IMG/VR virus record: IMGVR_UViG_2851955134_000005
Strand: one strand, 5' to 3'
From: a virus
Taxonomy: Duplodnaviria; Heunggongvirae; Uroviricota; Caudoviricetes
Length of the DNA stretch: 46,544 bases
Made by a program: the position numbers and the translations under genes. Numbering within the stretch: position 1 is the stretch's first letter; the number at the start of each line of letters is the position of its first letter. Positions 8,352 to 9,058 of the stretch are shown piece by piece. Under the pieces are notes generated by a model that was not told the DNA's origin, searched no databases, and saw only the letters and a list, made by a program, of their open reading frames with translations.

Positions 8352-8855
8352 ATGGACAAATTTGATAGAAGTGCACAAAGGCAGTTGTTACAAATACTGT
8401 ATGATGCTCATCCTTATGAAATTTCTGATGATGCGTTGCAGTCTGTTCGTGACGCATTTGGAGATGATAATGTCCTAATTTCGAACTTAATTTATCTCGA
8501 AGAACATGGCTTGATTAAGAATGCTCTTGATTATTACTTGGATGGCATAAATATAAATATTCCTGAATTAAGAATTACTAAAGATGGAATTGATTTCATT
8601 CGTGATGATGGAGGTCTTAAAGCTATTCTTGGGATTATGACAATAAGATTGCATGATGAGACTCTCTGTGAACTTGAACGTATCATCAATAGTTCTACTT
8701 CTGCCACGACTGAAGATAAGAAGAAATTACTTTCTCAGCTTCGAACGCTTCCTGCCGACGCCATAAAACAGCTGACGATTCGATTACTTGGTCAGGGGCT
8801 TGACCATCTGCCGGACGTATTTCACGTAATTCAAAAAGCCCTCCATTCTCTGTAA
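8352..8855 (+). CDS. hypothetical 167-aa protein, AT-rich moron beside the immunity region
   Basis: Coherent helical-looking translation; low GC versus flanks; own terminator at 9034-9058; convergent with cI. Confidence 0.5.
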   Translation: MDKFDRSAQRQLLQILYDAHPYEISDDALQSVRDAFGDDNVLISNLIYLEEHGLIKNALDYYLDGININIPELRITKDGIDFIRDDGGLKAILGIMTIRLHDETLCELERIINSSTSATTEDKKKLLSQLRTLPADAIKQLTIRLLGQGLDHLPDVFHVIQKALHSL

Positions 8856-9033
8856 ATTCTGATTCTGGTCGGATTAGACAGAATCGTCCCCATCCGATCT
8901 GCTTACTAAGTAGAATCCAGAATTCGTCTTGTTGGTTGGTGCTGATAAAAAATCCATTAGGATGAACGTAAGCACAGAATATGACCATAGAACCCTCTTT
9001 TGTTACGGGGATACCAGGATTGTTAAAGAGCGA

Positions 9034-9058
9034 AGCGTCCTATAGGGCGCTTTTTTTG
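9034..9058 (+). terminator. rho-independent terminator for the 8352-8855 gene
   Basis: AGCGTCC-tata-GGGCGCT (one G-U pair) followed by seven T. Confidence 0.5.

Follow-up and report, generated by a model that had tools for sequence, protein, structure and literature searches.

The window analysed here is a stretch of 46,544 nucleotides from a virus of the Caudoviricetes (IMG/VR record IMGVR_UViG_2851955134_000005). Beside its immunity region lie two genes on opposite strands whose 3' parts overlap, here called the large gene and the small gene. They occupy a slot that is bounded by inverted repeats and followed by a terminator, a boxA and a PL-like promoter (Table 1).

Table 1. Features of the slot and its surroundings, in coordinates of the window.
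Feature	Position	Strand	Remarks
Left inverted repeat of the slot (AATCTTGATACCCCCAATAACA)	8315..8336		pairs with 9001-9021
Promoter-like site TTGATA-16-GATTAT	8319..8346	+	weak; 9/12 in the consensus scan; 5 nt 5' of the ATG
Large gene	8352..8855	+	ATG start; 167 aa, 18.9 kDa, pI 5.0; PHROG 3983
Overlap, read as dual-coding	8695..8855	both	161 nt; antisense codon position 2 opposite sense position 3
Small gene	8695..8988	-	97 aa, 11.3 kDa, pI 4.9; without RefSeq annotation
Shine-Dalgarno GAGGG of the small gene	8997->8993	-	4 nt 5' of the ATG; read from the sequence
Right inverted repeat of the slot (TGTTACGGGGATACCAGGATT)	9001..9021		pairs with the left repeat
Presumed boxA, rrn-type, exact (GCTCTTTAACAA)	9020..9031	-	on the leftward transcript; invariant in seven loci with different cargo
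Intrinsic terminator of rightward transcripts	9032..9058	+	hairpin 9032-9053, T run to ~9058; in the conserved flank
Operator copy and PL-like promoter TTGCCA-17-TAGATT	9137..9169	-	promoter scan; operator repeat
cI	9849->9223	-	HTH_3 and Peptidase_S24 domains (LexA-type)

The large gene differs in composition from its surroundings. The GC content of its non-overlapping part is 0.338, whereas the left flank has 0.54 and both the right flank and the window as a whole have 0.50. An earlier sequence-only reading had singled out an AT-rich ORF of 167 codons here, convergent with cI, and both statements are borne out. In the overlap stretch (8695-8855), the GC content rises to 0.46 because both strands appear to be coding there. 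Between the large gene and cI are a cI-distal hairpin (9173-9204) and the operator with the PL-like promoter (9137-9169). The homologues in L010, L012 and L014 have the same upstream spacing as the TTGATA-16-GATTAT site. Alternatively, the GGTGA at 8338-8342 may be a Shine-Dalgarno sequence, with the promoter farther left.

The large protein matches PHROG 3983 over its full length (E = 2.6e-59), and the function of this PHROG is given as 'unknown'. The large family comprises 1135 representative clusters, nearly all of them of about 165 aa, and IMG/VR holds at least 501 relatives of the gene. The N-domain of the protein is an acidic winged helix of YjcQ/MarR-like type, and its C-domain is helical. 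R6, Q9, Y48, D81, D86, H101 and K123 are among its conserved residues. The protein has the winged-helix fold of MarR/PadR-type transcription factors, without a match to the MarR/PadR Pfam family or a significant match to a Pfam HTH family of any kind. The N-domain has a pI of 4.25 and a net charge of -10. The helix at the recognition position (39-52), DNVLISNLIYLEEH, is hydrophobic and acidic, with a pI of 4.1. Judging by these acidic and hydrophobic residues, the protein probably does not bind DNA.

Searches of Pfam, NCBIfam and PADLOC give no significant match for the large protein. Among 25 members of the large family, none matches PADLOC-DB v2 at E <= 0.01, and the best PADLOC match of the window's protein is CARF_m5 with an E value of only 0.013. 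A PDB sequence search finds no match for the large or the small protein; the sequence-profile hits of the large protein in the PDB are cupins, which we dismissed as chance. No signature of HEPN or of another nuclease is seen in the large protein. Membrane segments are absent from both proteins (maximal 19-residue hydropathy of 0.83 and 0.71). All the names of the two proteins in the source databases are 'hypothetical protein', and literature searches on the accession and on DUF2513 gave nothing useful. One depositor labelled the AbIPP1 homologue of the large protein a 'putative transcriptional regulator'. The sequence-only reading had called the protein unrecognised and proposed profile and structure searches; these return a PHROG and a fold, but no named function.

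The antisense ORF of 97 codons and its GAGGG ribosome-binding site, also reported by that reading, are present as described. In homologues of the small gene the ATG is conserved, and most of them have GGAG/GAGG-like motifs upstream. In the predicted small protein, a five-stranded beta domain (residues 3-58) is joined by a linker to a C-terminal helix (78-96), and the mean pLDDT of its AlphaFold model is 85. It has no Pfam or PHROG family and no known relative, and PADLOC-DB v2 gives 0 matches for the window's copy. In the 44 codons outside the overlap, the differences at positions 1, 2 and 3 are 0.37, 0.26 and 0.60. In these same codons, pN/pS is 0.34, and the frame has 0 stops, while the other five have 15-39. 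Gene finders call the small gene in 51 database clusters. RefSeq calls it only where a contig end truncates the large gene; standard annotation pipelines systematically overlook it. As the first ORF that follows PL and boxA, the small gene was considered as a lambda N analogue. This idea was rejected: the small protein is acidic and folded, and it is absent from the alternative cargoes of the slot. SfV orf33, from the same region, was likewise rejected as a homologue, as the two do not align.

The arrangement of the two genes is conserved. At least 50 diverged loci have the small gene overlapping the large one at its 3' end, always in one relative frame. A first set of loci has a full-length small ORF on the opposite strand, in that frame, in 20 of 37 (16 of these 20 are distinct, the rest being duplicates of the same locus). 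In the non-redundant viral loci, the small ORF is present in 32-33 of 37, and the overlap measures 152-218 nt.

Stop codons are avoided in the antisense frame. When the synonymous codons of the sense gene are randomised, the probability of an open antisense frame is 0.0008 for the overlap of the window and 0-0.004 for nine enterobacterial loci. Under conservative controls it is about 0.04 for the window and 0.001-0.25 per locus, with a combined p of 2e-10 if the loci are independent. The synonymous divergence of the large gene points the same way. Its pS is 0.37 within the overlap and 0.82 outside, and all 157 diverged pairs compared show the drop. Where the amino acid is the same, the share of identical codons increases from 0.41 outside the overlap to 0.72 inside. 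As a control, 14 loci without the partner show no drop, with pS values of 0.82 and 0.79 and identical codons of 0.35 and 0.32. In addition, the pN of the C-terminal part of the large protein is 0.27 with the partner and 0.54 without it. By this comparative evidence, both ORFs are real genes, they are linked, and their overlap is dual-coding. The sequence-only reading had treated the coding strand as an either/or, with one ORF spurious, and had taken a single 167-aa gene as the unit. Neither view survives: the overlapping pair is conserved, the pS drop depends on the partner, and the unit is a two-gene cassette.

The pair occurs across unrelated phage contexts, namely early-left, early-right, late and immI-like regions. 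In the three contexts examined for this point (L040, L042 and L041), no small gene occurs without a large gene. Many distant relatives of the large gene have no small partner. Therefore, the large protein can function by itself and does not always require the small one.

The cassette lies in a slot that receives other cargo. The core of its repeats, AATCTGGATATCC, is inverted at both ends of unrelated cargoes, with at least 17 cargo types in IMG/VR. As RNA, the duplex of the left and right repeats has an energy of -18.8 kcal/mol, against -7.7 +/- 2.8 for shuffles. We considered whether these palindromic repeats are operators of the large protein and rejected it; they also flank unrelated cargo and therefore cannot be its private operators. 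From the PL-like promoter and boxA, the layout continues with the right repeat, the cargo, the left repeat and an STnc100-like RNA. We take GCTCTTTAACAA to be boxA on the established rrn-type consensus. Other cargoes at the same place include ECs1072-type genes, genes for a secreted 171-aa protein and Zn-ribbon genes of 172 aa. Among the E. coli records that match the flanks, 75 of 1932 hold the cargo described here. An apparently 'empty' slot in L161 was rejected, its anchor being a false one inside another cargo. The svsR sRNA of prophage NC-SV (PMC12803456) was also discarded as irrelevant, since NC-SV is a different prophage, integrated at icd.

Some features of the other cargoes deserve a record. 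The ECs1072-type cargo, although unrelated, is likewise a convergent pair of a large (+) and a small (-) gene. The Zn-ribbon cargoes contain embedded antisense ORFs of 92-103 aa, which may be by-products. A GAGTAT hexamer is conserved before many cargo start codons; it can equally be the -10 element of a promoter for leaderless mRNA or a Shine-Dalgarno sequence.

The terminator hairpin has 9 pairs, 5 of them G-C, and the local fold of 9026-9066 has an energy of -13.8 kcal/mol. It lies 177 nt 3' of the large gene's stop codon, in flanking sequence that hardly differs among prophages with unrelated cargo. Therefore, it belongs to the slot and was not brought by the large gene. The hairpin and T run seen by the sequence-only reading are there, but they are not the gene's 'own terminator'. 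On the other hand, its description of the gene as a moron-type accessory insertion beside the immunity region agrees with the foreign composition and with the unrelated cargo in the same slot of other prophages. The slot lies just downstream of the PL-like promoter. The operator repeat at this promoter is common to the OR region (9866-9896 and 9915-9945). The PL-like assignment follows from this operator copy and the consensus match. The left boundary of the immunity module is at ~9129, and an immunity-swap boundary is visible in strain 20.1.

In relatives, the neighbours of the two genes differ. The large gene is directly 3' of, and co-oriented with, an HTH_3 cI-like repressor in L087, L089 and L095, an Arc/Mnt-type repressor in GF-2, L059 and L093, and an S24 cI in AbIPP1. 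The small gene is 3' of a cro-like gene in the early operons of L040 and L042, and between a Q-type antiterminator and a holin gene in L041. Its orientation agrees with that of the gene upstream in 24 of 31 viral loci and in 13 of 18 genome loci, the corresponding figure in partner-less loci being 3 of 11 (Fisher p = 0.027); for unannotated loci, the neighbour orientation comes from a crude longest-ORF heuristic. This co-orientation is missing in about a quarter of the partner-containing loci. In AbIPP1, the neighbours are co-oriented and only the small gene deviates. Judged by gene order, relatives place the two genes in opposite kinds of operon. From the association of the large gene with cI/Mnt-type repressors, and of the small gene with lytic operons, we infer a lysogeny effector and a lytic antisense partner.

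We tentatively favour a life-cycle-coupled pair, in which the slot cassette (8315-9021) would hold an effector expressed in lysogeny (the large protein) and its antagonist in the lytic phase (the small protein). The cassette would be the first stretch transcribed leftward from the PL-like promoter, after the rrn-type boxA. The large gene would face this lytic transcription, and the small gene would run along with it. In a lysogen, PL would be repressed, and the large protein would be made from the weak promoter at the left edge of the slot. Its transcript would be halted by the slot terminator before reaching OL/PL and cI. Upon induction or infection, PL transcription would traverse the cassette, with the small protein as its first product. 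Head-on polymerase collisions and antisense RNA would then switch the large gene off, and the small protein would probably neutralise the large protein. The latter may act by binding a protein or a ligand rather than DNA. Most plausibly, it would exclude or abort other phages, or restrain a lytic function. What we infer for the pair is when each gene is expressed, that one product antagonises the other, and what the biological target is; the pair possibly has an anti-phage function. The convergent ECs1072-type pair in the same slot is side evidence in favour of this reading. Against it stand the weak consensus match of the large gene's promoter, the lack of PADLOC and PDB matches, the quarter of partner-containing loci without the co-orientation, the deviating gene order of AbIPP1, and the many distant relatives of the large gene that have no partner.

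A broader proposal, which we regard as rather doubtful, is that the pair represents a widespread unnamed phage module, counting at least 500 copies in IMG/VR among Gamma- and Betaproteobacteria, with a lysogeny effector and a lytic antagonist on opposite strands of ~160 bp, so that the lysis-lysogeny decision would physically toggle its product. It would then be a new anti-phage or self-immunity system, with an acidic winged-helix effector and a mechanism unlike those of known defence proteins.

Other readings of the pair were considered. It could be an accessory regulatory switch, in which the large protein, a winged-helix DNA binder, would regulate genes of the phage or of the host (a second-tier immunity factor comparable to the immI components of P22), and the small protein, or its antisense transcription, would be the anti-regulator. 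The large gene does adjoin Arc/Mnt-type, cI-type and Ant genes in GF-2, AbIPP1 and several IMG/VR phages, and the depositor's label of the AbIPP1 homologue agrees with this. However, the charge of the winged-helix domain, its hydrophobic and acidic recognition-position helix, and the absence of a significant HTH Pfam match argue against it. Likewise, the palindromic repeats of the slot border unrelated cargo and are not private operators. We consider this reading unlikely.

Equally unlikely, in our view, is that the two genes are neighbours without a functional relation. The large gene would be a stand-alone moron, the small one a lytic-cycle gene with an overprinted tail, and the overlap nothing but genome compaction. 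The large family is indeed far wider than the small one (1135 representative clusters against 51). Furthermore, the LPADxIKHL motif of the large protein is kept even without the partner; therefore, conservation of the small protein within the overlap could partly be a by-product. Nevertheless, the pair shifts as a unit among the early-left, early-right, late and immI-like contexts, with a constant relative frame and a similar overlap length. The lower C-terminal pN of the large protein in the presence of the partner (0.27 against 0.54), and the lack of a small gene on its own in the three contexts examined, also speak for a link.

A toxin-antitoxin or abortive-infection pair, with one protein toxic, the other neutralising and the convergent overlap setting their ratio, is more improbable again. 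It would fit the tight linkage of two small mobile genes that occur in many unrelated phage backgrounds. Some relatives have the large gene 3' of an RHH or HTH gene, like a toxin after its antitoxin, and one distant homologue adjoins an MmeI-type restriction-modification gene. Nevertheless, the two genes are convergent and not co-directional, and therefore share no operon. No toxin or antitoxin family matches either protein in Pfam or PADLOC, so that neither the co-directional operon nor the domain of a type II system is found. Moreover, the large gene often occurs without the small one. Finally, that only the 167-aa gene is coding, with the antisense ORF a product of chance or an RNA-level by-product, is scarcely credible: the small ORF lacks RefSeq annotation and a Pfam or PHROG family, but its codon periodicity, pN/pS and absence of stops outside the overlap, its conserved ATG and Shine-Dalgarno, the avoidance of stops within the overlap, the suppression of sense synonymous divergence solely where the partner is present, and the confident fold prediction all contradict it.

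The favoured pair of effector and antagonist is of interest for several reasons. To our knowledge, a long antisense overlap of two protein-coding genes in bacteria or phages rarely gains acceptance, since the evidence usually consists of one genome and expression noise. Here the comparative evidence is strong by itself: the frame is constant over dozens of diverged loci, stops are avoided, and synonymous divergence drops two-fold. The partner-less relatives are an internal negative control. All this makes the locus a clean test case for the co-evolution of two proteins on one DNA. The placement of the module gives a testable hypothesis of how prophages turn off an accessory function on going lytic. 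We know of few systems so far with experimental solutions to this shut-off, such as Tha/Ith and BstA/aba. The PHROG 3983 gene and its unannotated partner appear to be shared by hundreds of temperate phages, and in PADLOC neither product resembles a known defence protein. Finally, the slot is a compact hotspot, and it can be mined for further functions expressed in lysogeny.

Among known systems, Tha/Ith of the Staphylococcus aureus phage 80alpha forms a 'noncontiguous operon' (PMC11087260). Tha is a HEPN RNase, encoded by a prophage gene that is expressed with the repressor in lysogeny. Ith is the product of a small gene on the opposite strand and inhibits Tha in the lytic cycle; head-on transcription produces mutually exclusive states (PMC11087260). 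The likeness is one of synteny: in relatives, the large gene stands behind cI- or Mnt-type repressors, and the small gene is antisense and usually in lytic operons. However, there is no similarity in sequence or fold, and HEPN is not found here. In our pair the coding sequences themselves overlap by ~160 nt, and the lytic-side gene would be driven by PL and not by a constitutive promoter.

The Pseudomonas phage Fc02 has two overlapping genes on opposite strands, olg1 and gene 10, in its lysis-lysogeny region. The lysogen transcribes one of them, the other is read from the early lytic promoter, and each gave superinfection exclusion when cloned (PMC9936078). Both cases are antisense-overlapping protein-coding genes of temperate phages. 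However, the protein sizes differ, Fc02 is a Mu/B3-type phage, and its overlap is not known to be widely conserved. A tblastn search of phage genomes with the 167-aa protein returned 14 records, and Fc02 was not among them.

The genes rexAB of lambda and sieB of P22 are likewise accessory genes beside the immunity region, and they are dispensable for phage growth. In AbIPP1, the homologue of the large gene is even in the rexAB position, downstream of cI. Unlike them, the large gene of the window is not part of the immunity module; it lies downstream of PL and is encoded on the other strand than cI. In Pfam and PHROG, neither protein is homologous to RexAB or SieB, and membrane-spanning segments are absent. 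An exclusion role of the rexAB/sieB type for the large gene, hinted at by the sequence-only reading, is hypothetical.

With respect to protein families, YjcQ (PF09639) gives sub-threshold matches in 4 of 25 large-family members (best E = 0.013), and DUF2513 (PF10711) in 1 of 25 (E = 1.3e-4). The large protein of the window matches neither. Compared with YjcQ, DUF2513 and MarR, its domain is acidic, and it has a conserved GIDFxRDDGGL motif and an 80-residue helical C-domain without counterpart there.

Finally, the cassette resembles lambdoid morons in its foreign composition, its variable presence among related prophages and the terminator after the gene. It differs in that a repeat-bounded slot with many cargoes supplies the terminator and probably also the promoter, and the cargo here is a two-gene overlapping unit.

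The window is a CPS-53/SfV-like lambdoid prophage, and its host is E. coli. Several complete genomes contain DNA identical to it. Their RefSeq annotation places yfdP, yfdQ and yfdR, all on the minus strand, as left neighbours of the genes studied here, and a LexA-family repressor, a Cro-like gene and ymfL as right neighbours. Between them lie two genes that overlap at their 3' ends, the large and the small gene (Table). We consider three points very probable: the two genes are real and linked, their 161-nt overlap (8695-8855) is dual-coding, and they occupy a variable cargo slot. 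Prophage accessory cassettes next to the immunity region are a known kind of element. Both protein families are uncharacterised, and the small gene is essentially unannotated.

The sequence-only reading had described the large gene as an AT-rich moron, convergent with cI and ending at its own terminator. The ORF, its convergence with the repressor and the antisense ORF with its GAGGG motif are all present. The AT-richness holds as well, with a GC content of 0.338 in the non-overlapping part of the large gene, against 0.50 in the window and 0.54 and 0.50 in the flanks. The hairpin and T run also exist, but they belong to the conserved flank of the slot and are not specific to this gene.

Coordinates of the cargo genes and of the signals around them
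Feature	Position	Strand	Details
STnc100 (RF02076)-like RNA	8026-8228	-	full length, sub-threshold: 36 bits vs gathering score 47, E = 1.4e-5
Imperfect inverted repeats bracketing the cargo	8315-8336 and 9001-9021		duplex -18.8 kcal/mol vs -7.7 +/- 2.8 in shuffles
Large gene	8352-8855	+	167 aa; RefSeq label only 'hypothetical protein', WP_000357060.1
Small gene	8988->8695	-	97 codons; GAGGG Shine-Dalgarno
boxA GCTCTTTAACAA	9020-9031	-	exact rrn-type; about 105 nt downstream of the PL-like promoter and operator copy
Terminator-like hairpin and T run	9032-9058	+
Promoter-like TTGCCA-17-TAGATT	9141-9169	-	overlaps the operator copy
13-bp inverted repeat AAAACACCAAACT / AGTTCGGTGTTTT	9173-9204		one mismatch; just past the cI stop; flanking A and T runs
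Repressor cI	9849->9223	-	HTH_3 and Peptidase_S24

Elsewhere in the prophage, an IS3-family transposase lies at about 3772-5000 (4573-5801 in comparison locus L001), among the early-left genes and with truncated hypothetical genes on both sides. Near the prophage end, RefSeq annotation of the identical DNA shows a Panacea-domain protein and an adjoining 128-aa hypothetical gene (about 1335-2323, plus strand; L001 2136-3124). The two might form a PanA-type toxin-antitoxin pair. The prophage adjoins zur and a dusA remnant.

The large protein had been called unrecognised, and profile searches agree. PHROG 3983, a family labelled 'unknown function', covers it from end to end (E = 2.6e-59); Pfam, NCBIfam and PADLOC give no above-threshold match. 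A word-indexed search gave 30 Enterobacterales homologues. A profile search of 1.84 billion representatives gave 1135 clusters (917 at E <= 1e-10), nearly all of them stand-alone proteins of about 165 aa. At least 501 relatives are in IMG/VR, and tblastn places the gene in phages of Edwardsiella, Pseudomonas, Klebsiella, Acinetobacter, Halomonas and E. coli. Residues R6, Q9, P21, Y48, L49, G79, D81, D86, G88, H101 and K123 are invariant in the alignment, which also presents the motif GIDFxRDDGGLxAIL. A structure search had been proposed too; the AlphaFold model (mean pLDDT 77) predicts a winged helix at 1-85 (pLDDT about 88), followed by four helices. Because this domain has a pI of 4.25 and a net charge of -10, and the helix at the DNA-recognition position is DNVLISNLIYLEEH, we think a classical DNA-binding role unlikely. 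The protein might still be a winged-helix regulator, with the small protein as its anti-regulator. We give this a low probability, the Arc/Mnt- and cI-type neighbours of its gene in relatives speaking for it and the acidic charge against it.

This cargo is present in only 75 of the 1932 E. coli records matching 8200-9200. The other records have the flanks in common, and unrelated genes occupy exactly the same site, among them those for an ECs1072-family protein with a small minus-strand gene, a secreted 171-aa protein (CFT073) and a Zn-ribbon protein of 172 aa. Alignment sets the slot boundaries at about 8336 and 9019. The repeat core AATCTGGATATCC brackets every cargo examined, with at least 17 distinct cargo types in IMG/VR. 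Joined, the two AATCTGGATATCC cores would form a perfect palindrome, AATCTGGATATCCAGATT. The CFT073-type cargo has an identical core variant, GGATGACT, at both ends. No empty slot was found among the slot loci compared. The repeats might derive from one ancestral palindrome that an insertion split, form a long-range RNA stem or mark a recombination junction. The same inverted-repeat slot was seen in comparison loci L007-L009, L012 and L014, and in about 36 IMG/VR loci among L123-L242.

The ECs1072-family cargo (L007 2652-3264, from E. coli PigCaeca_1; L126, L141, L229) has a plus-strand gene of 144-148 aa and a conserved gene of 73-76 aa on the minus (PL) strand, overlapping by about 29-62 nt. 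Two cargo types of the slot are thus built as convergent pairs, which suggests a recurrent solution and not an accident. In the Zn-ribbon family (156-175 aa; L129, L168, L181, L185, L237, L240), embedded antisense ORFs of 92-103 aa lie at a conserved position; they may be coding or only a by-product.

In Edwardsiella phage GF-2, the large gene overlaps the stop of an Arc/Mnt-type gene, which is divergent from arc-ant as in P22 immI. It follows an S24 repressor on the same strand in Acinetobacter phage AbIPP1, an HTH_3 cI-like gene at 21-244 nt in three loci (L087, L089, L095), and an Arc-type gene in two others (L059, L093). In PhiR49_2 it stands alone, antisense to the late operon that runs from lysis to terminase; in Salmonella and Mangrovibacter prophages it stands alone antisense to an early operon. 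The small gene lies directly 3' of a cro-like gene in L040 and L042, with overlapping stop and start codons, and between a Q-type antiterminator and the holin in L041. Calling neighbours crudely by longest ORF, we found it co-oriented with the gene upstream in 24 of 31 viral and 13 of 18 genome loci; for the corresponding neighbour in partner-less loci the count is 3 of 11 (Fisher p = 0.027). The genes might be unrelated neighbours, with an overlap that reflects compaction only. The far wider spread of the large family would agree with this; the constant relative frame and the similar overlap length argue against it, and we find it improbable.

Two Salmonella prophages (L010 3521-4427, L012 4155-4419) carry a C4 antisense RNA (RF01695, 75-81 bits) and IsrK (RF01394) 600-1400 nt left of the module, so these phages combine it with a P1/P7-type antirepressor control region. 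In Lysobacter arseniciresistens (L023 4657-7131), a distant large-gene homologue that has no partner sits immediately upstream of the gene for an 825-aa MmeI-type restriction-modification enzyme; this hints, weakly, at a defence neighbourhood.

A tblastn search with the 97-aa translation gave counterparts that are full-length and free of stops. They lie where the large-gene homologue has its 3' end, in Salmonella, Mangrovibacter, Providencia, Xenorhabdus, Edwardsiella phage GF-2 and E. coli phage PhiR49_2. Counterparts in Achromobacter and Luteibacter were weaker. A profile search of six-frame translations detected the small ORF in 20 of the 37 first-set loci (16 distinct, the remainder duplicates of a locus already in the set), and Pseudomonas and Acinetobacter phages have divergent versions. 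Among non-redundant IMG/VR loci it is present in 32-33 of 37, always on the opposite strand and in the same relative frame, with overlaps of 152-218 nt. Gene callers predict the protein in 51 database clusters, none named and none with a Pfam domain. Its RefSeq entries are almost only 'partial', at contig ends that cut off the large gene. AlphaFold (mean pLDDT 85) predicts five beta strands (3-58) and a C-terminal helix (78-96), joined by a linker of poor prediction quality. A toxin-antitoxin-like pair would agree with the linkage of the genes, less well with the partner-less relatives; we hold it less probable still.

The small gene's 44 codons outside the overlap differ at positions 1, 2 and 3 by 0.37, 0.26 and 0.60, with a pN/pS of 0.34. 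Across nine sequences its frame there is free of stops, while each of the other five frames has 15-39. The start ATG is conserved, with GGAG-like motifs 5' of it. For the overlap, we drew synonymous codons for the large gene at random, kept its protein, and scored the antisense frame. An open frame had a probability of 0-0.004 in nine enterobacterial loci, with 3-8 stops expected. Two deliberately conservative controls (codon usage pooled from the overlap itself; within-locus permutation) gave 0.001-0.25 per locus, and a combined p = 2e-10 if the loci are independent. In pairs below 70% identity, large-gene synonymous divergence (pS) was 0.37 inside the overlap vs 0.82 outside, and lower inside in 157/157 pairs. 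The same amino acid had an identical codon in 72% of cases inside and 41% outside. The 14 partner-less relatives show no pS drop (0.82 and 0.79; identical codons 35% and 32%), and their antisense frame is full of stops. The sequence-only reading had asked which strand codes in 8695-8855. The open antisense frame and the lowered pS replace this choice with dual coding, and a non-coding antisense ORF is scarcely credible. The LPADxIKHL motif of the large protein falls in the overlap and is kept even without the partner, so the other strand may account for part of the small-protein conservation there (VLWRxxEA).

An invariant sequence, AGATTGTTAAAGAGC, lies right of the slot. Its minus-strand reading is GCTCTTTAACAA, the rrn-type boxA consensus. 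This boxA is the same in seven loci whose cargo differs and is unique in the window, and no N-like gene is evident. It may spare leftward transcription from Rho termination on the way across untranslated antisense cargo. The right flank is conserved to about 9129; beyond, prophages with another repressor allele diverge. Immediately past this point lies a 31-nt copy of the cI-cro intergenic operator repeats. We infer that this copy and the promoter-like element are OL/PL. If so, the leftward early transcript would begin near 9134 and cross the boxA. It would then be sense to the small gene and antisense to the large one, and continue across a GC-rich conserved region into yfdP. The plus-strand terminator in the conserved flank would keep rightward cargo transcripts out of PL and cI. 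The inverted repeat past cI (-15.6 kcal/mol on the minus strand) probably serves as the cI terminator, perhaps a bidirectional one. The GC-rich region between the slot and yfdP holds the STnc100/PasD-like match, and phages SfIV and SfV have it too. A connection between STnc100 and the PasD sRNAs is drawn in a 2026 preprint.

On the basis of synteny, we lean slightly towards expression in opposite phases, in which the large gene would be expressed in lysogeny and the small gene in the lytic cycle, with mutual interference by convergent transcription. More tentatively, the small protein might antagonise the large one. The latter would be a putative effector of exclusion or abortive infection that works by binding a protein or a ligand.

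It is unusual for two protein-coding genes to share about 160 nt in antisense, with conservation across orders of Proteobacteria, and the support for it here is good. Phage Fc02 offers a precedent for the antisense overlap, with antisense-overlapping genes at its lysis-lysogeny region that both have exclusion activity (PMC9936078), although the Fc02 proteins are not homologous to the pair. The logic itself has been established by experiment for Tha/Ith of phage 80alpha. In that phage the cI promoter drives the defence gene, antisense ith provides an inhibitor during the lytic cycle, and the two states exclude each other through polymerase collisions (PMC11087260). Tha and Ith are likewise not homologous to the large or the small protein.
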